Source: Naegleria gruberi (Eukaryota). Taken from it: DNA of 64,000 nucleotides. The notes beneath the pieces were generated by a model. It was not told the DNA's origin. It worked only from the letters and a program-made list of their open reading frames with translations, and made no database searches. Positions within the stretch are counted from its first letter, which is position 1; each line of letters opens with the position of its first letter. The position numbers were made by a program, and so were the translations under genes. The stretch is from assembly GCA_000004985.1 (NCBI GenBank), contig GG738872.1. One strand, written 5' to 3'. Below are positions 1-29,339 of this stretch, in pieces.

Positions 1-367
1 ACCCAAACCCAAACCCAAACCCAAACCCAAACCCAAACCCAAACCCAAACCCAAACCCAAACCCAAACCCAAACCCAAACCCAAACCCAAACCCAAACCC
101 AAACCCAAACCCAAACCCAAACCCAAACCCAAACCCAAACCCAAACCCAAACCCAAACCCAAACCCAAACCCAAACCCAAACCCAAACCCAAACCCAAAC
201 CCAAACCCAAACCCAAACCCAAACCCAAACCCAAACCCAAACCCAAACCCAAACCCAAACCCAAACCCAAACCCAAACCCAAACCCAAACCCAAACCCAA
301 ACCCAAACCCAAACCCAAACCCAAACCCAAACCCAAACCCAAACCCAAACCCAAACCCAAACCCAAA
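1..367. repeat. Terminal telomeric repeat array (CCCAAA)n, about 61 perfect units; G-strand TTTGGG runs 5'->3' toward the left end. The window starts inside the array.
   Basis: Read directly: a perfect hexamer ACCCAA repeated without interruption from base 1 to about 367. Confidence 0.95.
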
Positions 368-474
368 AACCCAAACCTAAAAACCCAAACCCAAACCCAA
401 ACCTAAAAACCCAAACCTAAAAACCCAAACCTAAAAACCCAAACCTAAAAACCCAAACCTAAAAACCTAAAAAA
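368..474. repeat. Subtelomeric degenerate telomere-variant repeats (about CCCAAACCTAAAAA x5-6, also CCCAAAAA)
   Basis: Read directly: CCCAAA units alternate with CCTAAAAA variants and then end abruptly at TATTTAAG. Confidence 0.85.
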
Positions 475-1168
475 TATTTAAGTCCAGACCCAATGTTTCA
501 AAGTTCAAACCCTAGCCCAATTTATTGATTGTTATATCATTCGATTGTAAATGATGAGTAGAACAATGTATTATATTTAGTTTTTCAATTTATAAAATAT
601 TAACTTTGTAAATAATGTAAGATTAAAAATTTGTAAAATGAAACCATAGGAAGAATGATAATTTCAAAATCCTTTAGTGAGATTATATAGTAAATATCAT
701 CATTAACAACATTTATAATCACTTTCATATCAAATTTCAAAAGTTCAAGTCTGTAGATATAAAAGTATTGAGTGAAAAGGGAAGTAGTGAGGTACAATAG
801 GTCAACTATAACTTTTGAGTTTCTCATCAAAACATATTAAATCCTGACATGAAAATGTTCCATTTGATTAGTAAACATCGAATATCAAATTTATTTTAAC
901 TTTCATATTTAAAGATTTCTTCCCTCAATCACACATATGGTCAACTTGTATGAAAAGGTGGAAATCTTGAAAAAGGACCACCTATTGAAACTTTACCATC
1001 ATGATGTAGATGGTCTATAATGATGTACAATTCAATTTCATATCATAAGAATCAGAAATGGTACCATGGGAATGTAAATGTTGATTTTATAAAGTTGACT
1101 TTAAGGAAAGACAAGTCAGACCAACTCTATCAAATATATCACTTCAATCAATAAATTATATATGAAAA

Positions 1169-4100
1169 NNNNNNNNNNNNNNNNNNNNNNNNNNNNNNNN
1201 NNNNNNNNNNNNNNNNNNNNNNNNNNNNNNNNNNNNNNNNNNNNNNNNNNNNNNNNNNNNNNNNNNNNNNNNNNNNNNNNNNNNNNNNNNNNNNNNNNNN
1301 NNNNNNNNNNNNNNNNNNNNNNNNNNNNNNNNNNNNNNNNNNNNNNNNNNNNNNNNNNNNNNNNNNNNNNNNNNNNNNNNNNNNNNNNNNNNNNNNNNNN
1401 NNNNNNNNNNNNNNNNNNNNNNNNNNNNNNNNNNNNNNNNNNNNNNNNNNNNNNNNNNNNNNNNNNNNNNNNNNNNNNNNNNNNNNNNNNNNNNNNNNNN
1501 NNNNNNNNNNNNNNNNNNNNNNNNNNNNNNNNNNNNNNNNNNNNNNNNNNNNNNNNNNNNNNNNNNNNNNNNNNNNNNNNNNNNNNNNNNNNNNNNNNNN
1601 NNNNNNNNNNNNNNNNNNNNNNNNNNNNNNNNNNNNNNNNNNNNNNNNNNNNNNNNNNNNNNNNNNNNNNNNNNNNNNNNNNNNNNNNNNNNNNNNNNNN
1701 NNNNNNNNNNNNNNNNNNNNNNNNNNNNNNNNNNNNNNNNNNNNNNNNNNNNNNNNNNNNNNNNNNNNNNNNNNNNNNNNNNNNNNNNNNNNNNNNNNNN
1801 NNNNNNNNNNNNNNNNNNNNNNNNNNNNNNNNNNNNNNNNNNNNNNNNNNNNNNNNNNNNNNNNNNNNNNNNNNNNNNNNNNNNNNNNNNNNNNNNNNNN
1901 NNNNNNNNNNNNNNNNNNNNNNNNNNNNNNNNNNNNNNNNNNNNNNNNNNNNNNNNNNNNNNNNNNNNNNNNNNNNNNNNNNNNNNNNNNNNNNNNNNNN
2001 NNNNNNNNNNNNNNNNNNNNNNNNNNNNNNNNNNNNNNNNNNNNNNNNNNNNNNNNNNNNNNNNNNNNNNNNNNNNNNNNNNNNNNNNNNNNNNNNNNNN
2101 NNNNNNNNNNNNNNNNNNNNNNNNNNNNNNNNNNNNNNNNNNNNNNNNNNNNNNNNNNNNNNNNNNNNNNNNNNNNNNNNNNNNNNNNNNNNNNNNNNNN
2201 NNNNNNNNNNNNNNNNNNNNNNNNNNNNNNNNNNNNNNNNNNNNNNNNNNNNNNNNNNNNNNNNNNNNNNNNNNNNNNNNNNNNNNNNNNNNNNNNNNNN
2301 NNNNNNNNNNNNNNNNNNNNNNNNNNNNNNNNNNNNNNNNNNNNNNNNNNNNNNNNNNNNNNNNNNNNNNNNNNNNNNNNNNNNNNNNNNNNNNNNNNNN
2401 NNNNNNNNNNNNNNNNNNNNNNNNNNNNNNNNNNNNNNNNNNNNNNNNNNNNNNNNNNNNNNNNNNNNNNNNNNNNNNNNNNNNNNNNNNNNNNNNNNNN
2501 NNNNNNNNNNNNNNNNNNNNNNNNNNNNNNNNNNNNNNNNNNNNNNNNNNNNNNNNNNNNNNNNNNNNNNNNNNNNNNNNNNNNNNNNNNNNNNNNNNNN
2601 NNNNNNNNNNNNNNNNNNNNNNNNNNNNNNNNNNNNNNNNNNNNNNNNNNNNNNNNNNNNNNNNNNNNNNNNNNNNNNNNNNNNNNNNNNNNNNNNNNNN
2701 NNNNNNNNNNNNNNNNNNNNNNNNNNNNNNNNNNNNNNNNNNNNNNNNNNNNNNNNNNNNNNNNNNNNNNNNNNNNNNNNNNNNNNNNNNNNNNNNNNNN
2801 NNNNNNNNNNNNNNNNNNNNNNNNNNNNNNNNNNNNNNNNNNNNNNNNNNNNNNNNNNNNNNNNNNNNNNNNNNNNNNNNNNNNNNNNNNNNNNNNNNNN
2901 NNNNNNNNNNNNNNNNNNNNNNNNNNNNNNNNNNNNNNNNNNNNNNNNNNNNNNNNNNNNNNNNNNNNNNNNNNNNNNNNNNNNNNNNNNNNNNNNNNNN
3001 NNNNNNNNNNNNNNNNNNNNNNNNNNNNNNNNNNNNNNNNNNNNNNNNNNNNNNNNNNNNNNNNNNNNNNNNNNNNNNNNNNNNNNNNNNNNNNNNNNNN
3101 NNNNNNNNNNNNNNNNNNNNNNNNNNNNNNNNNNNNNNNNNNNNNNNNNNNNNNNNNNNNNNNNNNNNNNNNNNNNNNNNNNNNNNNNNNNNNNNNNNNN
3201 NNNNNNNNNNNNNNNNNNNNNNNNNNNNNNNNNNNNNNNNNNNNNNNNNNNNNNNNNNNNNNNNNNNNNNNNNNNNNNNNNNNNNNNNNNNNNNNNNNNN
3301 NNNNNNNNNNNNNNNNNNNNNNNNNNNNNNNNNNNNNNNNNNNNNNNNNNNNNNNNNNNNNNNNNNNNNNNNNNNNNNNNNNNNNNNNNNNNNNNNNNNN
3401 NNNNNNNNNNNNNNNNNNNNNNNNNNNNNNNNNNNNNNNNNNNNNNNNNNNNNNNNNNNNNNNNNNNNNNNNNNNNNNNNNNNNNNNNNNNNNNNNNNNN
3501 NNNNNNNNNNNNNNNNNNNNNNNNNNNNNNNNNNNNNNNNNNNNNNNNNNNNNNNNNNNNNNNNNNNNNNNNNNNNNNNNNNNNNNNNNNNNNNNNNNNN
3601 NNNNNNNNNNNNNNNNNNNNNNNNNNNNNNNNNNNNNNNNNNNNNNNNNNNNNNNNNNNNNNNNNNNNNNNNNNNNNNNNNNNNNNNNNNNNNNNNNNNN
3701 NNNNNNNNNNNNNNNNNNNNNNNNNNNNNNNNNNNNNNNNNNNNNNNNNNNNNNNNNNNNNNNNNNNNNNNNNNNNNNNNNNNNNNNNNNNNNNNNNNNN
3801 NNNNNNNNNNNNNNNNNNNNNNNNNNNNNNNNNNNNNNNNNNNNNNNNNNNNNNNNNNNNNNNNNNNNNNNNNNNNNNNNNNNNNNNNNNNNNNNNNNNN
3901 NNNNNNNNNNNNNNNNNNNNNNNNNNNNNNNNNNNNNNNNNNNNNNNNNNNNNNNNNNNNNNNNNNNNNNNNNNNNNNNNNNNNNNNNNNNNNNNNNNNN
4001 NNNNNNNNNNNNNNNNNNNNNNNNNNNNNNNNNNNNNNNNNNNNNNNNNNNNNNNNNNNNNNNNNNNNNNNNNNNNNNNNNNNNNNNNNNNNNNNNNNNN

Positions 4101-5508
4101 NNNNNNNNNNNNNNNNNNNNNNNNNNNNNNNNNNNNNNNNNNNNNNNNNNNNNNNNNNNNNNNNNNNNNNNNNNNNNNNNNNNNNNNNNNNNNNNNNNNN
4201 NNNNNNNNNNNNNNNNNNNNNNNNNNNNNNNNNNNNNNNNNNNNNNNNNNNNNNNNNNNNNNNNNNNNNNNNNNNNNNNNNNNNNNNNNNNNNNNNNNNN
4301 NNNNNNNNNNNNNNNNNNNNNNNNNNNNNNNNNNNNNNNNNNNNNNNNNNNNNNNNNNNNNNNNNNNNNNNNNNNNNNNNNNNNNNNNNNNNNNNNNNNN
4401 NNNNNNNNNNNNNNNNNNNNNNNNNNNNNNNNNNNNNNNNNNNNNNNNNNNNNNNNNNNNNNNNNNNNNNNNNNNNNNNNNNNNNNNNNNNNNNNNNNNN
4501 NNNNNNNNNNNNNNNNNNNNNNNNNNNNNNNNNNNNNNNNNNNNNNNNNNNNNNNNNNNNNNNNNNNNNNNNNNNNNNNNNNNNNNNNNNNNNNNNNNNN
4601 NNNNNNNNNNNNNNNNNNNNNNNNNNNNNNNNNNNNNNNNNNNNNNNNNNNNNNNNNNNNNNNNNNNNNNNNNNNNNNNNNNNNNNNNNNNNNNNNNNNN
4701 NNNNNNNNNNNNNNNNNNNNNNNNNNNNNNNNNNNNNNNNNNNNNNNNNNNNNNNNNNNNNNNNNNNNNNNNNNNNNNNNNNNNNNNNNNNNNNNNNNNN
4801 NNNNNNNNNNNNNNNNNNNNNNNNNNNNNNNNNNNNNNNNNNNNNNNNNNNNNNNNNNNNNNNNNNNNNNNNNNNNNNNNNNNNNNNNNNNNNNNNNNNN
4901 NNNNNNNNNNNNNNNNNNNNNNNNNNNNNNNNNNNNNNNNNNNNNNNNNNNNNNNNNNNNNNNNNNNNNNNNNNNNNNNNNNNNNNNNNNNNNNNNNNNN
5001 NNNNNNNNNNNNNNNNNNNNNNNNNNNNNNNNNNNNNNNNNNNNNNNNNNNNNNNNNNNNNNNNNNNNNNNNNNNNNNNNNNNNNNNNNNNNNNNNNNNN
5101 NNNNNNNNNNNNNNNNNNNNNNNNNNNNNNNNNNNNNNNNNNNNNNNNNNNNNNNNNNNNNNNNNNNNNNNNNNNNNNNNNNNNNNNNNNNNNNNNNNNN
5201 NNNNNNNNNNNNNNNNNNNNNNNNNNNNNNNNNNNNNNNNNNNNNNNNNNNNNNNNNNNNNNNNNNNNNNNNNNNNNNNNNNNNNNNNNNNNNNNNNNNN
5301 NNNNNNNNNNNNNNNNNNNNNNNNNNNNNNNNNNNNNNNNNNNNNNNNNNNNNNNNNNNNNNNNNNNNNNNNNNNNNNNNNNNNNNNNNNNNNNNNNNNN
5401 NNNNNNNNNNNNNNNNNNNNNNNNNNNNNNNNNNNNNNNNNNNNNNNNNNNNNNNNNNNNNNNNNNNNNNNNNNNNNNNNNNNNNNNNNNNNNNNNNNNN
5501 NNNNNNNN
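1169..5508. other. Assembly gap (run of N, about 4.3 kb)
   Basis: Continuous n characters. ORF-track entries 1148..5923(-) and 1162..5517(+) are artefacts of translating N. Confidence 0.99.
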
Positions 5509-5872
5509 ACTTTCTAATTTCTCTCAAAGCAACAGTACCTGGCTTATATCTATGTGGCTTTTTAGGAGTACGTGTCTTGCTAATAGTTGATGGTTGTTTT
5601 ATAGCTTTTCTTGGTGCTTTGCCTCCAGTTGATTTTCTTGTTGTTTTTCTTCTTGCTAAAATAGCAGCTTCGGAAGTATTTTTACTTTTTCTAGTATTTC
5701 CTTCGGCTAAATCGGAAGTATTGGAAGAAGAAGGAACATCTGCAGATGAAAAATTTGCAACCACATCAGAAGCGACAGTAGATGAAGAGTTTGTGGTATC
5801 AGATACCATTGAATCATCAGTAGTTTCAGTAATAGAAGAATGAGAAGTAGTATTTCCAGTGATGAGAGTCAT
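5509..5872 (-). CDS. Histone H3 variant with an about 73-aa Ser/Thr/Asp-rich N-terminal extension. It is partial: the histone-fold region is lost in the gap.
   Basis: - Start codon: a true ATG at 5872 (MTLITGNTT...).
- After the extension, the sequence reads [21 protein letters not shown]...[17 protein letters not shown].
- This matches the canonical H3 tail and alphaN region: [18 protein letters not shown]...[19 protein letters not shown].
- The frame stays open into the N run at 5509. Confidence 0.75.
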
Positions 5873-5998
5873 TTTTTTAATTTTGAAAAGGTTATTCGGA
5901 GCATCAATAATTTGTACTCTCACAAAATAACTCTTTCAAATTTTGACCATCTAAAATAATTTCTAAAAAATATTAACCAACCGACAGAACTCTCAACA

Positions 5999-6478
5999 AT
6001 GCCAAAACGATCAGTTACTAAAATCATACCAATGTATGAAAGTATCTACGATTTACCAGTTGTCATGGTTTGTATGAAAGGAGAGAAAATCTCCGATGAA
6101 GCTTTTATTAATCATTTGTATTTTCATTCGAGTGTCTTTTATCCAACCGTTAATGATTGTACCAAAACCATCAACACAATCATGCACGAACTTGAAAATG
6201 TTATAGCAATTAATGATGATTTTATTATTGATGAAATTCCAAATCCTATGGATTTAAAAGAAAAGCTCCAACTCTCAAGAAAAGCAAATAGATTAGCTAT
6301 TTATTCATTAAAGACAATGATTATGATGGAATCAAAGATGTTTAATGCTTTGTTTCAAAAGAAACCATCTATGAATCAATTAAACAAGGCTCACAAATTC
6401 CAAAATGTAATTCATTTGGAAATTGATGAAGAAGATGTTTCCGAAAATGAAATGACCATTTGGAAAAATAAAGAATAA
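5999..6478 (+). CDS. Hypothetical 159-aa protein with no recognisable domain
   Basis: ATG-initiated ORF between the H3 variant and the recombinase ORF. No motif recognised. Could be part of the same element or spurious. Confidence 0.25.
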   Translation: MPKRSVTKIIPMYESIYDLPVVMVCMKGEKISDEAFINHLYFHSSVFYPTVNDCTKTINTIMHELENVIAINDDFIIDEIPNPMDLKEKLQLSRKANRLAIYSLKTMIMMESKMFNALFQKKPSMNQLNKAHKFQNVIHLEIDEEDVSENEMTIWKNKE

Positions 6479-6537
6479 TTTTATTAATATAAATTAATAT
6501 CCTTAATAAATATTGTTTATTAATTAATTATATAAAA

Positions 6538-9303
6538 TTAATCATCAATATAGTCATCTAAAGGGTATATATAATCATTAAAGTAACGTAAAACCATACT
6601 TTCATCAACAAAGTTATCGAAAGGTTCCCATGTTGATTGTTTGTAACCATAACCTTGCCATTTTACAAGGTAATTGAAATATTTTGGTAATAAAAGATCA
6701 GAATCAATATCTATATCTTTTTCGATTAATTGATGGTCTAAAATCTCATCAACTACAAATATATCATCTGTTTGAGTATCTTGTAAATCTGAAGAATCAG
6801 CTGAAGAATCATCTGACATATCTGCCCATCTCCTTTTGGTACCTCCTTTCTTTTCCTTCTTGGATCTAAAAGAGGAACATTTCTTATATTCTTCTGGTGT
6901 CATTTTAAATTCAGAGAAGAACTTTTGCAAATCTTCAGGATTTAATGGGATGGTTACACCATCAAACCAATGATGATCTTTCAAATAACGATTCACATGT
7001 GAAACCAAATCTTCAAAAAACACATCCCTTTCTGAACTATTCCAATAACTATTTAGTAATATCTTGAATTTTGTAATAACCCGACTTTTTACCTTCCAAT
7101 AATTTTTGTTGAATTGTTTTTTATCTTCCTCTGTAACAATTTCAAGATCTGAAAATGCCATAAGAGATCTATAGATAGATCCCATGAAATTAGTAGTTTC
7201 TGTTAATGCAACCGTCTTTCCAAAAAGAAACTTCAGTTTCGGTATGTTGTCAATTAGCCAAGTCTTGCATTTGAAATCAACTCTTGTTTGTGGAAGTGAT
7301 TTTCTTTGAGAAATTATATTCTTGTTTGTTTGAGGAATATTCATAAATCCAACGCTCTCATCAATACATTCATCTCTCATAAATAGATATTTGAAAGGTA
7401 CGCAACCATTAGGATTGGATTTTCTAGATGTTATATATGAAGATGGTGACAATTCAACATTCAAAATATTATGAAAAGTAGTTTCCAATGTATCAGATGA
7501 TGAAAATCCATAATCTTGAATAGATCCTTGAACATATTGAAATATCATCTGCCGATGATGTACAGTATCTGCAAGGTACCTCTCTGGTAGTTGGTTGAAT
7601 ATTTTGAAAGCATATCTTTCATATGATTTAATTGAGCGCTTACTGACATGTCCTAGCATGAATGAAATTGCACTCTTTGTTTGCTCTTGCACAATATGGT
7701 TTCGAATAATATCAACCAACATGTTTTCTACCACAATACCAGATCTACCAGCACGTGCACAATACATGACATTTAAAATTCTCTTGGTGATATTTCTAAT
7801 ATATTCTGATATTCCATTTGAACAACATTGAGATTTAGATTGTTTTTTGAAAAATAAAAATTCTTTCACTACATCATTCTTAAATGTGAATTTACCATCT
7901 GAAATGAATTTTTCCCAATTAGAATTAAAGTTGGCAAATATCTCAGAACGAGTGTACCACAAATAATATAATAAAATGAATGATGAACAGAGAGTATGAT
8001 TCTGCTTTCCAAATATTGACACATTCCTTGATGAAGTGGTTGTACGCTTGTCTTTCTTCACTTCCATAGAAGTGTGAATAACGAACCATTTATCATCATT
8101 AAGATAATATTCAACTTTTTGAAATTTTACATCTTCAAGTCTTATCCAAATAAGAGAATCTCCTCTCATTCCAGTAGCTCGAATAACATGCATGATGGCA
8201 ACATCAGTAAGATCTTCAACTTTTGTCAAATCAGCAGCATAGGTAACTTTGTAGACCTCAGAAAACATCATTGGAGCAACTTTGTACACTTCACACCCAT
8301 ATAATCGAATCAAGCCCATTGTTGTTTGTTGAATAGCTTCCTTAAATAGAATGACTGGACTTTCACCGAATTTAGGATGTCTTTTTATGAATTTGTTCAA
8401 TCCATACACAAAGCACCCTTTCATTGTCTTATGCGAAAAACCACTAGCTCGACTGAATATCAAAAATCTAAGGTAGGTTATCTTTTCAATAGGGAATGGT
8501 TTCGGTTGAATCTTTGACCACGCTGTTTTGCCTTTGATTTGTTCTTTCCAAAACGACACATAGACAATTCCTGAATAAGCTTCAAATTGTCTAGTATTGA
8601 TATGCTTATGAAGCTTCATTACAGTGACAACCTTGGAAATATCTTCATCCAAATCATCAACAATTGTTAAATCTAAATTTGAATCAATTTCCTCATTGAA
8701 CTCTGGTCGAATAACAGCAGATTTCTTTTTTTTTGGAGTATAGCTTGCCACAAGGAGATCTTCAACATCATAATCAATTAAGCTAGCTTCCAAATTGTCA
8801 TTGATCTCTTCTAACATCTTTTCCTTCTCTTTCGGTGATGATGATTCTACATTACGAATAAGGGATTCTTTTCGAATTTCTTCATCAGTCATTTCGGGAG
8901 GGTTATCCATCTTGTTCATTCTTTCAATCTCTTGTAAAATATCTGACACAACATCCTTTTGATGCATATAAGGCTGTATCATTGTGTCTAAATCTTTAAT
9001 TGATTGAGCAACACCAATAAAATTGTTATTATGATTTAATAATGCCATTATGTGATGAAATGACTGCATAGTAAACTCAGCATCCAAACAATAAGTAACT
9101 CCGTTATAATCAACATTGATTGATTTGGAGCCAATATACTCCTTGTTGTTTAGCAAATCATTCATTTGATAAACTCGCGATGATGAGTTCTTTGATACTA
9201 AGGCGCTCTCATCCTGTTGAGTTGGTGGGAGTTCACCGGTTGGTGAATGGTTGTTGTTGGTGCAATCACTTAAATGAGAGCTTGTAGATGATGATGGAAG
9301 CAT
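6538..9303 (-). CDS. Tyrosine-recombinase-like protein (Crypton/DIRS-type YR core) with a C-terminal chromodomain, 921 aa
   Basis: - Start codon: a true ATG at 9303.
- YR box I-like segment: HVIRATGMRGDSLIWIRLEDV.
- YR box II-like segment: YCARAGRSGIVVENMLVDIIRNH...LGHVSKRSIKSYERY (LGH ... catalytic Tyr pattern).
- C-terminal segment DIFVVDEILDHQLIEK...YFNYLVKWQGYGYKQSTWEPFDNF...LRYF fits the chromodomain consensus (YxVExIL...YLVKWKGY...TWEP.N).
- No RT/RNaseH motifs are present in this ORF. Confidence 0.65.
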   Translation of the reverse strand: MLPSSSTSSHLSDCTNNNHSPTGELPPTQQDESALVSKNSSSRVYQMNDLLNNKEYIGSKSINVDYNGVTYCLDAEFTMQSFHHIMALLNHNNNFIGVAQSIKDLDTMIQPYMHQKDVVSDILQEIERMNKMDNPPEMTDEEIRKESLIRNVESSSPKEKEKMLEEINDNLEASLIDYDVEDLLVASYTPKKKKSAVIRPEFNEEIDSNLDLTIVDDLDEDISKVVTVMKLHKHINTRQFEAYSGIVYVSFWKEQIKGKTAWSKIQPKPFPIEKITYLRFLIFSRASGFSHKTMKGCFVYGLNKFIKRHPKFGESPVILFKEAIQQTTMGLIRLYGCEVYKVAPMMFSEVYKVTYAADLTKVEDLTDVAIMHVIRATGMRGDSLIWIRLEDVKFQKVEYYLNDDKWFVIHTSMEVKKDKRTTTSSRNVSIFGKQNHTLCSSFILLYYLWYTRSEIFANFNSNWEKFISDGKFTFKNDVVKEFLFFKKQSKSQCCSNGISEYIRNITKRILNVMYCARAGRSGIVVENMLVDIIRNHIVQEQTKSAISFMLGHVSKRSIKSYERYAFKIFNQLPERYLADTVHHRQMIFQYVQGSIQDYGFSSSDTLETTFHNILNVELSPSSYITSRKSNPNGCVPFKYLFMRDECIDESVGFMNIPQTNKNIISQRKSLPQTRVDFKCKTWLIDNIPKLKFLFGKTVALTETTNFMGSIYRSLMAFSDLEIVTEEDKKQFNKNYWKVKSRVITKFKILLNSYWNSSERDVFFEDLVSHVNRYLKDHHWFDGVTIPLNPEDLQKFFSEFKMTPEEYKKCSSFRSKKEKKGGTKRRWADMSDDSSADSSDLQDTQTDDIFVVDEILDHQLIEKDIDIDSDLLLPKYFNYLVKWQGYGYKQSTWEPFDNFVDESMVLRYFNDYIYPLDDYIDD

Positions 9304-9393
9304 TTTTTTGAGAGAAAATCCCCGAAATTTCCATTAAGGCAACTTTACAAAGTGAGCCCTCTTTGAGTATTCATAAATATAGGCAATTATCGT

Positions 9394-9420
9394 GCAAGAA
9401 GGCCTTTGTGGCCTTCCTGC
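9394..9420. repeat. Imperfect palindrome / hairpin: GCAAGAAGGCC - TTTGT - GGCCTTCCTGC (10 of 11 positions pair)
   Basis: Read directly. Sits about 90-120 bp upstream of the ATG of the recombinase ORF (minus strand). Confidence 0.6.
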
Positions 9421-9705
9421 ATCAATATCTCATCCAAGTAATAATATTTATATATATAAAATTGGCAAACAGCATTCAATTTATTCAAATATTGATGTAG
9501 ACAGGTAAAAATGTCAATAATGTCATTTTTTTTACCTTACTGAAAAATGACCTGTTTTTGAAAAGCTCCCATTCAATGAGTTCAGTGAATTAGAACTGAA
9601 TTTCTGTACGATAATGTAGTAATTGAAGTCTATTACGATATCTGAAAAATTCAATATCCCAATATTTAAACAACAAATCTGGGTAATGTAATTAGCCTGC
9701 AGTCT

Positions 9706-9731
9706 CCCAAACCCAAACCCAAACCCAAACC
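9706..9731. repeat. Interstitial telomeric repeat, (CCCAAA)x4.3, same orientation as the terminal array
   Basis: Read directly: cccaaacccaaacccaaacccaaacc. It is immediately followed, in frame, by homology to the receptor cyclase-like family. Confidence 0.9.
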
Positions 9732-10238
9732 TATTGCTCGCCTATTAGAAGAACACTATGGAACTAGTTTGAATATTAAATGCAATACCAAGTATTTAAT
9801 TTCATCAGAAACTGATTACATTTCAATTTACAGATTATATACAGATACTGATGTTGATTGGTAAGTAACCTAAACGAGTTAGATATAATAATTGTTCAAA
9901 ATAGGTTGTTTGTGTTAGCAGTTCCTCAATGGAATTACATTAGGTCAATTGTTATTGCTGTAATTTGTGCTATTGTTGGTGCCACATTCATTGTCACAAC
10001 AGGTGTAGCCATTTCCATCTTCATTTCAGTCAGATTAGTGAAACCATTTTACAATTTGATTGATTTATTCGAAAGTGTCTCTCATATGGATTTGGATAAT
10101 TTAGAAATTCATGATTCCAAATTTACAGAAGTGAAACAGTTACAAACTCATTTCAAAACCATGACAGACAGAATCAAACTTTACAGAGCTTTCATACCAT
10201 CACATTTACAAGTAATTTTGTCTCATTCATTTTATTAA
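9732..10238 (+). pseudogene. Truncated relic of a receptor-type cyclase-homology family gene: only the juxtamembrane/TM/linker portion, in 2 exons (9732..9860 and 9905..10238, with a 44-nt GTAAGT...TAG intron)
   Basis: - The fragment translates as ...LEEHYGTSLNIKCNTKYLISSETDYISIYRLYTDTDVDW|LFVLAVPQWNYIRS...VKPFYNLIDLFESVSHMDLD...RIKLYRAFIPSHLQ.
- It matches the paralog at 14687..15973: LDHYSNDWTKITCNEMQVLERSGQYISIYRLCTSSKIDWILVLSVPQWNY...VKPFYNLIELFESVANMDLD...RIKLYKSFIPAHLL.
- It also matches the paralog at 53385..55883.
- The N-terminal ectodomain exons are missing, and there is no room downstream for the cyclase domain. Confidence 0.6.
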
Positions 10239-10547
10239 TGTTACTAAGCTCTCTCTCCATATTTGAATTGCCAGCTTGTAGTATTAAGCGGAGAGAATCT
10301 CCCGTTTAGAATAAGAAACGGCCTGAATCCCGTTCATCCCGTTGCCCGTCTCACCGTTTATTTGTATCAACTCATACTGCTACATATTTCATATTGCATT
10401 GATTCAAATCCAATTTCAGAACAAAAACGAATGTATTTGATAGAATTTGTAAAGAGTTCTTGTTATTTTGGGGTTAGTCTTTGATTCCTCTGTATTCAAA
10501 ATGCACCATTGAGAGAAAACGGAAGCTTGTGTAATAAAAGGTTCATT

Positions 10548-13500
10548 CTACCAATTACTGTTGTTTATTAAGNNNNNNNNNNNNNNNNNNNNNNNNNNNN
10601 NNNNNNNNNNNNNNNNNNNNNNNNNNNNNNNNNNNNNNNNNNNNNNNNNNNNNNNNNNNNNNNNNNNNNNNNNNNNNNNNNNNNNNNNNNNNNNNNNNNN
10701 NNNNNNNNNNNNNNNNNNNNNNNNNNNNNNNNNNNNNNNNNNNNNNNNNNNNNNNNNNNNNNNNNNNNNNNNNNNNNNNNNNNNNNNNNNNNNNNNNNNN
10801 NNNNNNNCATTATTTGTAATGACAGAGGTAATGACTAATGATATCAAAGTAATACAAGCAGGTAATAAAAGTGTTGGCATGTTCATCAATCTCAAAATCT
10901 CAGTCAATGCCTCAGCAACTCCACTTTGAGTAATTGCTGCCGCAATTCCAAAAGATGCTCCAACCAATGTCACTAATCTCCATTCCACACAATCAACTGC
11001 TCTCGTTGGTGTTATCAATCCAAATGCAACGACTGCACAGAATGTCACAAGTGTACATTGAACCATTGGAAATCCAGCAATGGCGCATCCAATCATTGCT
11101 AAAAAGAATGGGAAAATCCAATGTTCCCACCACCACAAATCTAAAATGATTTTAGTGAAGGGAATTCTGAATAGAAATGGTTTTTGTTTGAATTGGTTGT
11201 AATCTGGTGAGATTTCGTTAAATCTTGTAATGAGATAGAAATCCTTTGAATTGTCATGATTATTATGGTAGAAAACACTTTTACCCAAAATTAGAATAGT
11301 ATCACCACAATATACTGTTTTGCAATTGACGTGTGAATCCTTATCGTTGGTTTCTTTAGTATCAATTGAGGAGGAACCAACTTGTCTGATGGCTAATACT
11401 TTGACTTGATATCTTCTTTCGAATTCCAAATAAGTTTCTCCTAAACATGGATTTGAAGCTCCAATAACAACCTGGAAGAATTCAGGTTCATTTTCTTGAA
11501 TTTCAGATTGATTAGTTTTAGATTTTTCATTGGAGAGAGCTGCATCTCCATAATTCTTCTTGATATTATGATGTAATTGATTAGTGACTGGATTTTCAGC
11601 TTGTGGTGATGTTGTTGGTGAATCAATTAAATGGTCTTGAGATGTTGAAGAAGCCACGCAACTGCTCTGTGAAATTCTTCCTTCTTCCATTGGAGATTCA
11701 ACACTCAAAAAGGAAGTAGTGCTTTGACCTGTTGCCATTTTAGGTTCTTCTTTTTGGTTGACTGATTCAGAACTTTCAAAAGTTGATTTTTCAATTTCAG
11801 AACCATCATACACAAGTGAATGCAAACGTAAAATTAATTGAGGAGCTCCTTGGAAAACCAAAATATCAGAACTTTCCAATTTTAGATCTAAAGGAACTGG
11901 TGAAATTTTTTCAAGCCCAGCAACAGTTTCGTTTGTTGCTGGAATAATTGTATTCGAAGAAGTAGAGCTATTTGAAGAGTTTGTGGATTGCTCTGGACTT
12001 TCCTTAGGTTCTTCTACCTTAATTTCAATAGATTCTCCATTGGAAATTACATTTGGTTCGCTTGAAGTTGTTGGTTGACTTGAAGATTGTACACTGCTCA
12101 ATTCAACTTGATTGGTTGATTTCTTTTCTCTCAAAATTTCAATCAAATCCAAGTTGCCTATTCCCAACTCTGACATGGCTTTGACTTTGGTCTTTCCATT
12201 CAAAGTTTCAAATAATGTTTTACCTTTCGAATACTTTGGTTGAGAAGCCAAATATTCCATCTTGACAATGGTAACGAAAGTTTCCGAATGTTCTCTCACA
12301 ACTTCTCTTGCACGTTCCTTTTTACTTTTATGAGCAAAAGTAACCTTTGAAGCATTAAACTTTGAAGTCACTCCTTCATTAGGAACAATCCACAATGTAT
12401 AAGTGCAACAATAAATAATTGTAATGAAACATAAAATGGCGCCAACATAAACAAACTCATAAAAGGATAAAGGAGTGTAACCATATTGAGTATAGATACC
12501 ATTTGCAACAATACTTGCTGAAGTTCCAATATATGTCAACAATCCACCTCCATTTGTTGCGAATAAAAGTGACATGAGAAATTTGGTATGTGAAAGTTTG
12601 TGTGTCCTTGCCCATTCCATAATGATAGGAATTCCTGTGGCCACAACTGGAGTATTCGATACAAATGCACTAAAAATGGTAAAAACAAAACAAATTCTTA
12701 AAGTTGGTGGTATGAGTGAAATAAAATTGAGAAATTTGTTTTTGGAATTTTTGAATTTCAATGGGGAACCAAATAAAAGTCTGGCAAATTTCAAAACTAG
12801 GGTATTTTCACTTAATGGTTTGACGATTGGGAAGAGGAGAGCAACGATGAGAGTACCAGTGTTGGAAAAACCACTTAAGGCATCTGTAACACTGACAATA
12901 CCTGCCAGATTAAAAATGACAAGTGTCATAACCACAATAAAGTAAGGTCTCCAAAGAGAAACAACCAGACAGACTAGCATTAGGATGACCATGCATAGTA
13001 CGAACCATAATTTCCATGAATTCCATGAAAATGCAACTACAGGTGACGTGGATCCACAAATATTATTGATGGATGAGCTTGTTAACACTGTATCTATGCT
13101 CACAGATTGATTCAGCTGTTGAATGGTAGTAAAGTTGTAGTTTAGATTCTTAGAAGGAACTTGTGCTTGTAAATCGTTGAAAGCATTCACCAATTCTTGA
13201 CTAAACATTCCACTTTCAATCTTGTTTCTAATATCAGCAAGGTCGAGTTTGACTAGAAACCATTGAATTGCATAGGAATTTGTAAACAACTCTGGAATAT
13301 CCAAGTATTTGGTAGAATTCATGAATGCATTCTTACTTGTCGTTCCATTTATATGAAAAACCATCTTTTCATATGTCAAATCCATTCCACTTTTTGTTTG
13401 AATGACAGAAATTGGATATTCTTGAAGGAGAGAAGTTCTGGAAGGAAGAAAGAGTGAATTTTGATATTTTGTGGAAAGTAAGTTATTATGGATGATTCTA

Positions 13501-13964
13501 AAATAGTAAAAACTTAGTGTTTCGTTCGTTTCGTGCAAACTTTCGACATGTTCATCAAATAGAAACTTCCAAGAAATTGTTCCTTGTCCGTGTTCATAAC
13601 TCAATGAAACATAACTAATGGTAGTGCTTGCATTTATGGTAGAACTCTTATAATTCGTATCGTCATTCGAATAGTAAACACTCTCGGATATATTTTTGGT
13701 AAACTCGGTGGAAAATTGATAAATTTGACCATTTACAAATGCAGATGAAGTAGAAATACAATTATCCAATCGAATAGGATGATTTAGCAAGTTTGCAAGT
13801 GATAAAATGATGAAAATGCTTGAAATGCAAGCAAATACGAAACTGTGGAGTTTCATCTTTTTTTCTTTCGAATTGTTAGATGAGAAGGAAGAGATTCGTC
13901 CTGTTGAAATGCAAAAGGGCACAACTGTGGCCATGCTGGACTCGTTTTCTATACTATTTGGCAT
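10548..13964 (-). CDS. Anion permease of the CitMHS / ArsB-NhaD (SLC13-like) superfamily. Two permease halves are separated by a cytoplasmic loop with two TrkA-C (RCK_C) domains, and there is an about 330-aa N-terminal ectodomain after a signal anchor.
   Basis: - Start codon: a true ATG at 13964.
- First multi-TM block: CMVILMLVCLV...GIPIIMEWARTHKLSHTKF...ATNGGGLLTYIGTSASIV.
- TrkA-C-like segment: FFQVVIGASNPCLGETYLEFERRYQVKVLAIRQ...CGDTILILGKS.
- Second TM block: WWEHWIFPFFLAMIGCAIAG...VTLVGASFGIAAAITQSGVAEAL.
- The C-terminus is interrupted by the N gap, so the 3' end is uncertain. Confidence 0.6.
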   Translation of the reverse strand: MPNSIENESSMATVVPFCISTGRISSFSSNNSKEKKMKLHSFVFACISSIFIILSLANLLNHPIRLDNCISTSSAFVNGQIYQFSTEFTKNISESVYYSNDDTNYKSSTINASTTISYVSLSYEHGQGTISWKFLFDEHVESLHETNETLSFYYFRIIHNNLLSTKYQNSLFLPSRTSLLQEYPISVIQTKSGMDLTYEKMVFHINGTTSKNAFMNSTKYLDIPELFTNSYAIQWFLVKLDLADIRNKIESGMFSQELVNAFNDLQAQVPSKNLNYNFTTIQQLNQSVSIDTVLTSSSINNICGSTSPVVAFSWNSWKLWFVLCMVILMLVCLVVSLWRPYFIVVMTLVIFNLAGIVSVTDALSGFSNTGTLIVALLFPIVKPLSENTLVLKFARLLFGSPLKFKNSKNKFLNFISLIPPTLRICFVFTIFSAFVSNTPVVATGIPIIMEWARTHKLSHTKFLMSLLFATNGGGLLTYIGTSASIVANGIYTQYGYTPLSFYEFVYVGAILCFITIIYCCTYTLWIVPNEGVTSKFNASKVTFAHKSKKERAREVVREHSETFVTIVKMEYLASQPKYSKGKTLFETLNGKTKVKAMSELGIGNLDLIEILREKKSTNQVELSSVQSSSQPTTSSEPNVISNGESIEIKVEEPKESPEQSTNSSNSSTSSNTIIPATNETVAGLEKISPVPLDLKLESSDILVFQGAPQLILRLHSLVYDGSEIEKSTFESSESVNQKEEPKMATGQSTTSFLSVESPMEEGRISQSSCVASSTSQDHLIDSPTTSPQAENPVTNQLHHNIKKNYGDAALSNEKSKTNQSEIQENEPEFFQVVIGASNPCLGETYLEFERRYQVKVLAIRQVGSSSIDTKETNDKDSHVNCKTVYCGDTILILGKSVFYHNNHDNSKDFYLITRFNEISPDYNQFKQKPFLFRIPFTKIILDLWWWEHWIFPFFLAMIGCAIAGFPMVQCTLVTFCAVVAFGLITPTRAVDCVEWRLVTLVGASFGIAAAITQSGVAEALTEILRLMNMPTLLLPACITLISLVITSVITNNXXXXXXXXXXXXXXXXXXXXXXXXXXXXXXXXXXXXXXXXXXXXXXXXXXXXXXXXXXXXXXXXXXXXXXXXXXXXXXXLINNSNW
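10573..10807. other. Assembly gap (235 N)
   Basis: Run of n. It interrupts the 3' end of the transporter gene. Confidence 0.99.
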
Positions 13965-14686: not shown

Positions 14687-17128
14687 TCAACACATTCGAA
14701 ATTTAACACAAAAAGTTATTGGAAAGGTCAAAAACAGAAAAGGACTTACCTCATCGTCGTTCACTTTCAAAGAAGATCCCAATTCATAGATATTTGTTAG
14801 CACGCCAGTATTTGGAGTCTTGTATTCGTCAGTTTTTCCATTGAGCGAGTTTAAATTAGTTTCGTCTAGTAATTCTTTGGAATCTACATATCTGATTTGG
14901 AACAATTGTTCACATTTTTCCTTAATCTTCTCACTTACTACAATACTAACATTCAGTTGAATTGCAATTTGAGTCAATTGATCCAAATTTTGTTTGGCGC
15001 TCGAAATTATTGTAAAGTTTTTCAATTCGTTCGTTCCAATATTTCCACAATAGGAAGATTGTGATAAAACTGCAATTTTAAATGACATTAAATCCAATAA
15101 TTGTGAATTCTTCTTGAAACTGTTTAATAAGGTTGAGGCAGCGACAACTCCTTTTTCTTCATGATTCGTCTGATTATTCGAAGAGTTAAACGAAATGGTG
15201 ATTGATTCATTTTCAAAGTTTCCAACGTTTCCTGTCAAACTTCTACTCACACTATTAATCTGTTCAAAAATATCTGACATTAGCTCAATAGTTTCGTTTG
15301 GATTCATATTTTGCAACCATTCAGTAAATCCATTAAAATGAATCTGGACGAAAGTTACCTTCTTCTGTTCCATATACAAGGAAAACTTGCTTCTATCATT
15401 CTTATATACTTTCCTTGAGGATCTTGCTTTATGAGAAATTCCTTTACTGGAATTAGAACTTCCCACTGATTGAGTTTCCTGACTTGACATGTTGTGCGAA
15501 GATCCTCCGTAGACTTTAGTTCTGGAATTCTTTCGGAAAGATTCGTCTACTTCACTGTCTGATTCTTGGATACCATCTACATTTTCAATTTCTGAAAGTA
15601 AGTGAGCTGGAATAAAACTCTTGTAAAGTTTGATTCGGTTGACCATGGAAATGAAATGTCCTTGTAATTGTTTCACTTCTGAGAATGAACTTGGAATAAT
15701 GTGAAGTTGATCCAAATCCATATTAGCAACACTTTCGAATAACTCTATCAAATTATAAAACGGCTTGACAACTTTTAAGGAAACAACAACTCCCAAGACT
15801 AAACCAACCGAAATGATGAGAACACTACCAATCAATGAGCAGATAATTGCAAAAATTGTCGATCCTAAATAATTCCATTGAGGGACACTCAACACTAATA
15901 TCCAATCAATTTTTGAGCTAGTACACAATCTATATATGGAAATGTATTGTCCACTACGTTCGAGAACTTGCATTTCATTGCAAGTTATTTTAGTCCAATC
16001 ATTCGAATAATGATCAAGAATAGCTTGAGAAATTGCGTTGATTTTGGTATCTGAAACATCGGTTGGTGTTTTTCTATCTAATGATCCATCTGATTTCCAA
16101 TCTGAAATTGTAACTTCCTCTCTGTCAACTATTTCCCATAAACTTTACAATAAAAATTTATGTAACTTACCTGCAATCAAATAAGCAGTTTCAGTTTCCA
16201 CAATAAATCCTAAAGATCCAGTAATGGATGCAATTCTTTCTTTCAAAAAGTCTGAAATCGATGACACTGTCAAATCATTTGCTTGATAATAGTGAAAATT
16301 GTGTCCGTTAGGAAGAGGAAGTTTCTTATTTACGACACAATTCATGGAAGTGATGAATGTGTATTGAGGCATTGAAATGTCAGCATAACTCAATGTAAAA
16401 ACTTGTTGACCTGGATTAGCATCACAGACCTCAACGAGATAGCTCACATCGAATGGCTTGTTGGTTTCGTCTGGATTAGAATTTCTAACACACTGTTCGT
16501 GATTGGTAATGTTGTCGCAATAATAGATTAATTGAGCTGTTGATGTGATATTAAAAGTGGCCAAATAATCTCCCCACTCAATTGATCCAAAGCATGTTTT
16601 ATCTGTACCTCCCACATATGAGGAAATTGTAATTCCCTTCAAATGTTTTTGAGATGACTAATGGCAATTTGAAGGTATTTCATTAATTTTCATGAATTTT
16701 TCATATTTTGAATATGAGAATAGGAATCAATAAACTTTGCTTACCTTGTAGCCTGCAAACATAATCCTCTCCAAATAATCGAAATTTCCATACGAATAAT
16801 CATCAGTTGCCAATTGTTGTTTAATGGCCTCATTCAATACATTAACTTCTTTGAGTGTTTGCTCTGCATATTTGACAATGGTTGAAAACTCTTCGTCTCT
16901 CACTGTTGATGATAAACTGACAACTGTTGGAGAAAAACTTGCCAACCAAATGGCAGATAGGATCAAAACACTGAGGAAGAGTAAACCAGATACCATGACA
17001 ATCATACAAAATTTGATGGAAGTTCCCTTAGTTGAGCCTCCTGTGTAGGAACTTGTTTCTTGATTCTTATCCATTATGGCTTGTTTATCCTCTTGTGAGG
17101 TTGGTGTTACCTTGTTCTTTAATTTCAT
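14687..17128 (-). CDS. Receptor-type cyclase-homology (pseudo-cyclase) protein, about 760 aa, 3 exons. Exon 1 is 16745..17128. Exon 2 is 16171..16636. Exon 3 is 14690..16128, or 14690..16089 with an alternative in-frame acceptor.
   Basis: - Start codon: ATG at 17128.
- Intron 1 donor: AAG|GTAAGC. Intron 1 acceptor: tttgaag|GGAATT.
- Intron 2 donor: GCAG|GTAAGT. Intron 2 acceptor: gggaaatag|TTGAC.
- Architecture: N-terminal cytosolic stretch, signal-anchor TM, ectodomain, second TM (ILVLSVPQWNY...), HAMP-like linker, then a class III nucleotidyl-cyclase-like domain.
- Cyclase-like motifs: VTFVQIHFNGFTEW ... GNVGNFENESITISF ... FKIAVLSQSSYCGNIGTNELKNFTIISSAKQNL.
- The canonical metal-binding Asp residues are replaced: D->H/Q in the first motif, and IGD->FEN in the second.
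- Paralogous to the gene at 53385..55883. Confidence 0.6.
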
Positions 17129-29219: not shown

Positions 29220-29339
29220 GGCTACGGCCATATCACGATGAATGCACCTCATCCCGTCCGATTTGAGAAGTTAAGCATCGTCGAGCCACATCAGTACTGA
29301 GGTTGGAGACAACTTGGGAACCTGTGGTGCTGTAGTCTT
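29220..29339 (+). rRNA. 5S ribosomal RNA (solitary copy)
   Basis: - Sequence: GGCTACGGCCATATCACGATGAATGCACCTCATCCCGTCCGATTTGAGAAGTTAAGCATCG...GGTTGGAGACAACTTGGGAACCTGTGGTGCTGTAGTCTT.
- It matches the 5S consensus blocks: CTACGGCCATACCAC, CCCGTCCGATCTG, AAGTTAAGC and GGGAGACC...GGGAA...GGTGCTGTAGGCTT.
- Helix I pairs 5' GGCTACGGC with 3' GCTGTAGTC.
- Length is about 120 nt. Confidence 0.85.

Follow-up and report, generated by a model that had tools for sequence, protein, structure and literature searches.

In a stretch of 64,000 nt from contig GG738872.1 of Naegleria gruberi (GenBank assembly GCA_000004985.1), hereafter the window, which opens with a terminal telomere array, a second and much shorter run of telomere repeats is found at positions 9706–9731, oriented like the terminal array and joined base for base to the homologous coding sequence of a truncated gene for a putative receptor-type class III cyclase. 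Distal to this tract lie a gene for a putative tyrosine recombinase (YR) with a C-terminal chromodomain and a gene for a histone H3 variant, and the same architecture is seen at chromosome ends of N. fowleri and N. lovaniensis. The tract is a genuine interstitial telomeric sequence (ITS) and probably forms the centromere-proximal border of a telomere-associated element, acquired via the repeats on a truncated chromosome end. The element is likely to consist of the YR gene, the H3-variant gene and the DNA hidden in the adjoining scaffold gap, and to end in the terminal telomere.

The tract and its junction with the truncated gene

When the whole window was searched for runs of at least two CCCAAA units only three appeared, two of them within the terminal array (2–367 and 384–401) and the third at 9706–9731, while 12-mer matches to the telomere repeat numbered 71 against ~0.39 expected by chance. 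TTTGGG has been proposed from genome data as the candidate telomere unit of N. gruberi (PMC3622300), and this repeat unit is all that had been proposed previously, no description of Naegleria chromosome ends being found in the searched literature. An earlier note on this DNA, made from its letters alone, had reported (CCCAAA)x4 at this place in the orientation of the terminal array, and the present analysis agrees, the tract being a perfect run of 26 nt with a final CC whose unit is that of the array at 1–475. Within a 5.06-kb contig (5509–10572) it is adjoined on either side by non-telomeric DNA, and it is not terminal, ~9.2 kb of non-telomeric DNA lying distal to the 26 nt of repeats. Read on the G-strand, the sequence runs ...GCGAGCAATA up to the junction and GGTTTGGG from there on, so that the repeats abut truncated unique sequence and are oriented so as to prolong the 3' end on the centromere-proximal side. 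No more than 1–2 nt at the junction are assignable to complementarity with a telomerase RNA template or to microhomology. No Rfam families or tRNAs were found near the tract, a comparison of 476–1168 with 5509–9705 gave no terminal inverted or long terminal repeats, and the regions 9304–9705, 10200–10572 and 476–1168 showed no homology to any compared locus.

The fragment next to the tract comprises 145 codons in two exons (Table 1) and represents the middle piece of a putative receptor-type class III cyclase paralogue, two intact members of the family being present further inwards in the window. Exon A is colinear with both of these from its first residue (I-A/S...HY...C...YISIYRL) with a single 1-aa indel, and the homology therefore extends to the tract itself; taken alone, the first 27 aa are modestly significant, their score being reached by 115 of 5000 shuffles. 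A tblastn search with exon B gave 55% identity over 101 aa to paralogue 1 (E 2e-36) and 45% over 99 aa to paralogue 2 (E 9e-23), and at the nucleotide level the fragment is 74–80% similar to paralogue 1, which is inverted relative to it. The homology to the middle of both paralogues that the earlier note had proposed is thereby confirmed. The note had let the coding sequence start at 9732; the tract does abut coding homology, but the in-frame codons begin at 9733, and a P codon (9730–9732) spans the junction between tract and fragment. Its description of the repeats as fused in frame turned out to carry no content, as there is a stop 10 codons upstream of the tract and no ATG, and CCCAAA is free of stops in all frames.

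The intron of the fragment is missing from both paralogues, which implies that the fragment comes from a distinct member of the family and is not a recent copy of its neighbours. Both the 5' exons and the cyclase domain are absent, as previously claimed: tblastn with the paralogues revealed neither the 5' exons nor the cyclase piece of the fragment's family elsewhere in the window, and no cyclase-like open reading frame (ORF) follows downstream of ~10211. The missing cyclase half, ~1.2 kb, is not hidden in the 235-N gap, since a gap of the stated size is too small to hold it, and the fragment is thus truncated on both sides. The putative assignment of the family comes from a profile of four full-length members which, when run against PDB, matched class III adenylyl cyclases only (3r5g 2.6e-5, 2w01 and 6fht), while Pfam Guanylate_cyc went undetected in the full-length members; a word-indexed homologue search with the 145-aa fragment gave no matches.

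In both N. lovaniensis and N. fowleri, orthologues of paralogue 2 (L002 and L003) are situated 53–58 kb from a contig end, about as far in as in N. gruberi. They are oppositely oriented relative to the end and have two extra genes before a PGAP1-like gene, which may reflect either an inversion or coincidence. At one N. fowleri end (L007, 1221–6806) the last unique gene before the telomeric tract encodes a large cyclase (PAS, TPR_TmcB, Guanylate_cyc), and genes of the cyclase family may be frequent close to chromosome ends in Naegleria.

The putative recombinase and its neighbouring genes

The start codon of the YR gene lies 402 nt from the tract. Its 921-aa product carries the chromodomain at the C-terminus (Pfam 4.7e-10, with HP1/CBX matches in the PDB profile search), in which we take F849, W882 and Y885, read against Drosophila HP1, to be the aromatic-cage positions. 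The same PDB search detected the chromodomain only and gave no match in the core, the AlphaFold2 model of the core had a pLDDT of 35 and was unusable, and the match of the core to Pfam Phage_integrase was weak, 19.8 bits against a cut-off of 27.1. Recombinase motifs were found at ATGMR380, K417/K419, R517xxR520, H552 and Y561 and are conserved across 15 members of the family. The R-K-H-R-H/W-Y constellation is present, with an R (R517) in place of the H and with H552 replaced by W in other members, and the family alignment keeps ATG(L/M)R...DS, a (K/R)K(D/E)K hairpin, RSxRSG, G(H/W) and YxR. Two family members match Pfam NDC10_II (2.6e-5), the Crypton-related recombinase fold of Ndc10 (PMC3537659). 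The protein is accordingly described here as a putative recombinase of Crypton-like type, a label that refers to motifs and not to fold.

An exhaustive phmmer search revealed 13 representatives of the family at E ≤1e-10, including proteins of N. lovaniensis and N. fowleri, at least five of Willaertia magna and metagenomic sequences; metagenomic members aside, the family is restricted to Heterolobosea. Among the annotated proteins of N. gruberi the YR is present in a single copy, at this scaffold end, and scans of viral and metagenome contigs found no relatives. The YR-chromodomain protein of N. gruberi has just one close relative, with 32% identity and the same architecture, and this is encoded on a metagenomic contig (L001), which has the YR gene alone in common with the window. 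About 1 kb downstream of that gene is a gene for a Tet_JBP dioxygenase (L001 5989–7074), another chromatin/DNA-modification gene near a member of the YR family.

Further distally, the 159-aa ORF of the window shows a weak match in an N-terminal motif (E 0.015) to the ORF at the same position in W. magna. In the latter species (JBEGDK010000020.1, L010, 1–3700, at a contig end) a YR member begins ~50–120 bp from the end and is followed by a gene for a 159-aa H3-fold histone (Pfam 7e-30) and by a divergent ORF of unknown function, the same trio as in N. gruberi. The shared gene content suggests a module of YR and H3 variant that is conserved across genera.

Recombinase homologues at chromosome ends of sister species

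Homologues of the YR gene were found close to terminal arrays in N. lovaniensis (L006) and at two ends in N. fowleri (L007 and L008), in all cases pointing towards the telomere as in the window, and likewise in a further, independent N. fowleri contig (L009). The N. lovaniensis homologue is located 5.8 kb from the terminal (TTTGGG)n array. For a random gene the chance of being placed within 10 kb of a telomere is ~2–3%, a rough estimate from genome size and chromosome number, and the position of the YR gene near the telomere in three independent lineages is thus far beyond chance.

When comparing the two N. fowleri ends the similarity starts exactly at GGG(TTTGGG)2 (L007 7000–7014, L008 8897–8911) and continues past the tract for ~700 bp at 93% and thereafter, for the remainder to the telomere, at 99.4% identity. 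At the homologous position in N. lovaniensis a decayed tract, GGATGGGTTGATTTGTTGGG, is situated at L006 8466–8485, and the sequence that follows it is clearly homologous to the element 5' region of N. fowleri. The proximal flanks of L006, L007, L008 and the window are on the other hand mutually unrelated. Proximal tracts are 15 nt long at both N. fowleri ends, ~20 nt in the decayed form of N. lovaniensis and 26 nt in N. gruberi, and the phase in which the tract ends is ...TTTGGG for N. gruberi as well as N. fowleri and ...TTGGG for N. lovaniensis. What recurs at these non-orthologous ends is thus a unit consisting of a unique flank, a short G-strand tract, the element 5' region, an outward YR gene and the telomere, and the tract of the window occupies the same position in this unit as those of the three other ends. 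The element accordingly has the placement of the Y' elements of yeast, with a short internal tract on one side and the terminal array on the other, and like these it occurs at some ends only.

Both N. fowleri copies are pseudogenes with in-frame TAA codons (L007 and L008, 11540–11660), and their homology to the YR ends 5 nt before the telomere, at approximately residue 373 of the 652-aa N. lovaniensis protein; because of this truncation box II and the catalytic Tyr are missing. Since the truncation is shared by both ends, the distal part would have been copied between them after the death of the recombinase, and the shared junction is consistent with recombinational copying of chromosome ends. 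It also gives a second example within the genus of telomere repeats placed directly on truncated coding sequence.

Some further differences between these ends were seen. A 1.9-kb insertion present only in L007 (7701–9596) lies inside the element and contains, on the opposite strand, a 5'-truncated, non-LTR-like (long terminal repeat, LTR) reverse transcriptase (RT) with RNase H. In N. lovaniensis a 300–400-bp direct repeat with 86–96% identity (L006 9136–9524/13931–14340) brackets the YR gene together with a pogo/Tc5-type DDE_1 transposase gene inserted downstream of it (12023–13285), and this repeat may represent terminal repeats of the element or a partial tandem duplication. Between the element and the canonical repeats of N. 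gruberi there is a variant array (368–475) of ~6 copies of a 14-mer, TTTTTAGGTTTGGG, and N. lovaniensis has one of ~13 copies of a 9-mer, TTGGGTTTA (L006 17594–17710); N. fowleri is without a variant array.

Telomere-like inverted repeats

Just 5' of the YR gene several of the loci contain inverted repeats with arms resembling the telomere unit and 18–25 nt apart. The sequence is TTTGGGA-18-TCCCAAA in N. fowleri (L008 8906–8937) and TTGGG-20-CCCAA in N. lovaniensis (L006 8481–8510), while the N. gruberi repeat, TTTGGG-22-CCCAGA (window 9678–9711), is imperfect, TCTGGG at 9678–9683 pairing with the first CCCAAA of the tract. In the metagenomic contig L001 the arms, TCCAAACCC-25-GGGTTTGGA (1488–1530), come in the opposite order, and W. 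magna has AACTAAGGG-22-CCCTTAGTT at the contig end (L010 7–46). These repeats, which were noticed post hoc, could constitute a putative recombination site.

Proposed history and alternative explanations

The arrangement in the window may have arisen in three steps. The chromosome end would have been truncated, by breakage or erosion, within a receptor-type cyclase paralogue; the truncated end would then have borne a small number of TTTGGG repeats, for which addition by telomerase is the simplest source; and the element together with its telomere would finally have been placed distal to this short tract via the telomeric repeats. For the last step the most likely route would be that the short or new telomere invaded the tract preceding the element on another end and copied outward by break-induced replication (BIR), the process by which yeast chromosome ends gain Y' elements. 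The uniformly short proximal tracts fit such invasion of an internal donor tract followed by outward copying.

Several points weigh against this history. The 3' truncation of the fragment calls for a further, unexplained event; no second N. gruberi copy of the YR, and hence no BIR donor, was seen in the annotated proteome; telomerase action at the break is indistinguishable from copying of a donor tract; the element 5' region of N. gruberi has, at the nucleotide level, no clear homology to its counterparts in N. fowleri and N. lovaniensis; and the N. gruberi arrangement spans two scaffold gaps and relies on draft scaffolding. One gap is situated 840 bp to the proximal side of the tract and the other 4.2 kb to its distal side, and because the contig with the tract lies between them, both the 9-kb length and the connection with the remaining chromosome depend on the scaffolding.

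The earlier note had read the locus as a healed chromosome break to which about 9 kb of extra DNA, carrying the recombinase/H3 block, was later joined. Of this, the healing stands in so far as the repeats are joined base for base, in the right orientation, to a decapitated coding sequence, but the four repeats need not be the residue of a full telomere; since the element borders short tracts at three other ends, they were possibly inherited from a donor end by recombination or produced by integration into telomere repeats. The healed-break reading also leaves the truncation of the fragment at ~10211 unaccounted for. As for the extra DNA, that view finds no support in its stated form, the distal DNA being a telomere-associated YR element which is bordered by a telomeric tract at three ends in sister species. 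In its fullest form, where a random break is healed to a full telomere that shrinks to four repeats and is end-joined to an unrelated acentric YR/H3 fragment, the scenario is quite improbable: the anatomy of the junction is compatible with it, and there are documented cases of "fusions of neotelomeres" from cancer genomes (PMC11293586) and of healing on coding sequence from Plasmodium (PMC5550746), but a chance join is hard to reconcile with the YR family standing behind a short tract at three other ends with unrelated flanks. If instead no telomerase step took place, the broken gene end would have been joined to the short tract of a donor end, through microhomology-primed BIR or through YR-mediated recombination at a pseudo-site, and the four repeats would be derived from the donor. 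In the paralogues, codons resembling the telomere unit (ACCAAA/AAxAAx) do occur slightly upstream, within a few codons of the position equivalent to the junction, so a seed may have existed, and the tracts are of similar length across ends; with homology of the fragment reaching to within one codon of the tract, microhomology of at most 1–2 nt at the junction and no known donor copy, this course of events is nevertheless unlikely.

Active transposition specific for telomeres, in which a Crypton-type circle was integrated by its own YR into the TTTGGG repeats capping the truncated gene and left four of them proximal, is possible but rather doubtful. It would account for same-orientation telomere repeats on both sides of the element, for the tract phase common to N. 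gruberi and N. fowleri and nearly so in N. lovaniensis and for the telomere-armed inverted repeats at the element 5' edge; in N. gruberi the ORF of the YR is intact and none of the conserved motif positions is lost, the aromatic cage of the chromodomain is kept and would suit targeting to heterochromatin, and YR elements specific for telomere repeats are known in crustacean nimaviruses (PMC10871703). The proximal tracts are however uniformly short (15–26 nt), where insertion at random positions in an array would make them vary, both copies in N. fowleri are inactive pseudogenes and still duplicated on two ends, and at the distal junctions N. gruberi and N. lovaniensis have variant-repeat arrays instead of clean canonical repeats. 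The genomes of N. gruberi and N. lovaniensis moreover contain a single copy each, and the inverted repeats are, besides being a post hoc observation, imperfect in N. gruberi and of opposite arm order in L001. We tentatively raise the broader idea that Heterolobosea might harbour an undescribed telomere-dwelling element, made up of a Crypton-like YR with an HP1-type chromodomain and its own H3 variant, that recognises a telomere-unit inverted repeat, is inserted into telomeric repeats or recombined with them and so re-caps truncated ends, in which case 9706–9731 would be an attachment scar.

An artefact of assembly or cloning, in which contigs or reads with no relation to each other would have been joined at the tract as a chimera, is very unlikely. 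The assembly is a draft with gaps on both sides of the tract, and no match to the ORFs of the window was found for independent N. gruberi DNA: exact-protein look-ups with the YR, both its neighbours, the fragment ORF, paralogue 2 and the PGAP1-like protein matched no contigs, and a 25-mer beside the junction had no match among metagenome contigs. The tract is nevertheless placed inside a contig and not at a gap. A misjoin over overlapping repeats cannot give its orientation, since the telomere at the right end of the left block would itself read TTTGGG, and CCCAAA to the right of that block cannot be its terminal telomere. Position and orientation relative to the YR are moreover matched in the independent long-read assemblies of N. 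fowleri and N. lovaniensis. The assembly chimera that the earlier note had named as a possible refutation is for these reasons unlikely. A nanopore data set for N. gruberi exists (PMC12695648).

Three other candidates were rejected. Head-to-head fusion of telomeres was set aside, the repeats being in one orientation only. Expansion of a native PK-coding microsatellite was dropped, the sequence upstream of the tract being the 5' region of the recombinase and unrelated to the cyclase family. A vector chimera, suggested by a CTGCAG 4 nt from the tract, was likewise dropped, the match to a polylinker being of 8 nt only and the architecture in the sister species opposing it.

Comparison with known systems

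Each component of the locus is known in kind while the combination is new, a Heterolobosea-specific chromodomain YR with an H3 variant behind a telomeric tract and capping a decapitated gene, and no description of such a combination was found in the searched literature. The Y' elements of Saccharomyces cerevisiae are likewise protein-coding, lie between a short internal tract (TG1-3 at the X-Y' junction) and the terminal telomere, occur at some ends only, are apparently copied via the tract and are thought to derive from a mobile element. Y' encodes a helicase, whereas the Naegleria element has none and contains instead the YR with its chromodomain, the H3 variant and an ORF of unknown function; it is also of low copy, at one or two ends per genome. 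The biology of Y' elements is summarised in PMC13177704 and PMC11042809.

Healing in Plasmodium falciparum (PMC5550746) resembles the present case in that repeats are placed directly on a truncated gene near the end with the proximal part of the gene kept, but there the repeats stay terminal, while in Naegleria they are internal, 26 nt long, and have ~9 kb of element DNA beyond them. In cancer genomes, neotelomere fusions and telomere-spanning arm fusions (PMC11293586) similarly include short tracts in neotelomere orientation that lie between non-telomeric DNA and disrupt a gene; these are somatic and sporadic with arbitrary partners, whereas the partner in Naegleria is a recurrent, lineage-conserved element. 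The MoTeRs of Magnaporthe oryzae (PMC7367193) are mobile elements resident at telomeres that generate short interstitial tracts at their proximal side and promote truncations and copying from end to end, as the Naegleria element would, but they are reverse-transcriptase elements in arrays; the Naegleria element is YR-based, RT being confined to the unrelated, 5'-truncated insertion at a single end in N. fowleri.

Endogenous nimaviruses of crustaceans (PMC10871703) are YR elements flanked by repeats of the host telomere unit but are viral genomes of 200–360 kb with a different YR family, which by their authors' account is not close to Cryptons. Cryptons and the Ndc10/Gcr1 proteins (PMC3212892; PMC3537659) share with the Naegleria element a stand-alone YR gene without LTRs, terminal inverted repeats or RT, and the NDC10_II match of two family members points the same way. 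Unlike Cryptons, whose classic hallmarks are multiple copies and short direct end repeats, the Naegleria element has the C-terminal chromodomain, a linked H3 variant and a telomeric location, and it is a putative Crypton-like element.

The locus probably preserves the concrete trace of a chromosome end that was cut short within a gene and then capped anew, and it provides a lineage-conserved, protein-coding telomere-associated element with a short telomeric tract as its inner border. To our knowledge, telomere-specific elements have so far been either retroelements or giant viral genomes. If the Naegleria element is mobilised by the recombinase that it encodes, it would represent a DNA transposon that is small, cellular and directed at telomere repeats, with a chromodomain recombinase and an H3 variant tied to the chromatin of chromosome ends; if it is spread by recombination only, it would correspond in a protist to the Y' of yeast and be of use when considering the independent origin of such elements. 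Either way it offers a marker with which to find and validate chromosome ends in Naegleria assemblies, including those of the pathogen N. fowleri, and it raises the testable question of how chromosome ends of Naegleria undergo repair and whether there is a DNA transposon specific for telomeres.

Features of the window and of the compared ends

Table 1. Position of the features discussed, in the window (from contig GG738872.1) and at chromosome ends of sister species; for the latter, YR positions are locus coordinates
Feature	Sequence	Position	Strand	Remarks
Terminal telomere array	Window	1–475	+	C-strand; (CCCAAA)61 perfect at 2–367, then variant CCCAAACCTAAAAA units to ~475
Telomere-adjacent unique DNA	Window	476–1168		AT-rich, 26% GC; closes first contig
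Scaffold gap	Window	1169–5508		4340 N, within distal block
H3-variant gene, N-terminal part	Window	5509–5872	-	~70-aa extension first; enters gap; Pfam Histone E 0.0011, below cut-off
159-aa ORF	Window	5999–6478	+	Divergent from H3-variant gene; no assigned function
YR gene, 921 aa, intact	Window	6538–9303	-	Transcribed telomere-ward; Crypton-like (by motif) tyrosine-recombinase core and C-terminal HP1-type chromodomain ~849–902
Element 5' region	Window	9304–9705	-	Non-coding; TCTGGG at 9678–9683
Interstitial telomeric tract	Window	9706–9731	+	(CCCAAA)4CC, 26 nt, 100% perfect; probable proximal boundary of element
Exon A of fragment	Window	9733–9860	+	IARLLEEHYG...DVDW; juxtamembrane ectodomain of decapitated receptor-cyclase paralogue
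Intron of fragment	Window	9861–9904	+	44 nt, GT..AG, private to fragment
Exon B of fragment	Window	9905–10211	+	LFVLAVPQWNY..., transmembrane segment, membrane-proximal linker, end AFIPSHLQ; homology stops
Unique non-coding DNA	Window	10212–10572		~360 bp, no cyclase homology; followed by gap
Scaffold gap	Window	10573–10807		235 N
CitMHS transporter gene	Window	10808–13964	-	3'-incomplete, convergent; at least ~33 C-terminal residues missing
Paralogue 1, intact	Window	14687–17128	-	Three exons; reference for fragment
Paralogue 2, intact	Window	53385–55883	+	832 aa, intronless; C-terminal divergent class III cyclase homology domain and TPR
N. lovaniensis YR (L006)	PYSW02000027.1	10001–11959		(TTTGGG)n from 17724 to contig end
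N. fowleri YR (L007)	VFQX01000033.1	10001–11563		Array ~2.5 kb, 85 bp past gene
N. fowleri YR (L008)	VFQX01000003.1	10001–11563		Array ~1.6 kb, 85 bp past gene
N. fowleri YR (L009)	Logan contig, run SRR29240419	138–1700		Gene/telomere junction 100% identical to L008

No tRNA genes were found in the window. A 5S rRNA gene (Rfam, 105 bits) is located at 29220–29338, ~29 kb from the telomere.

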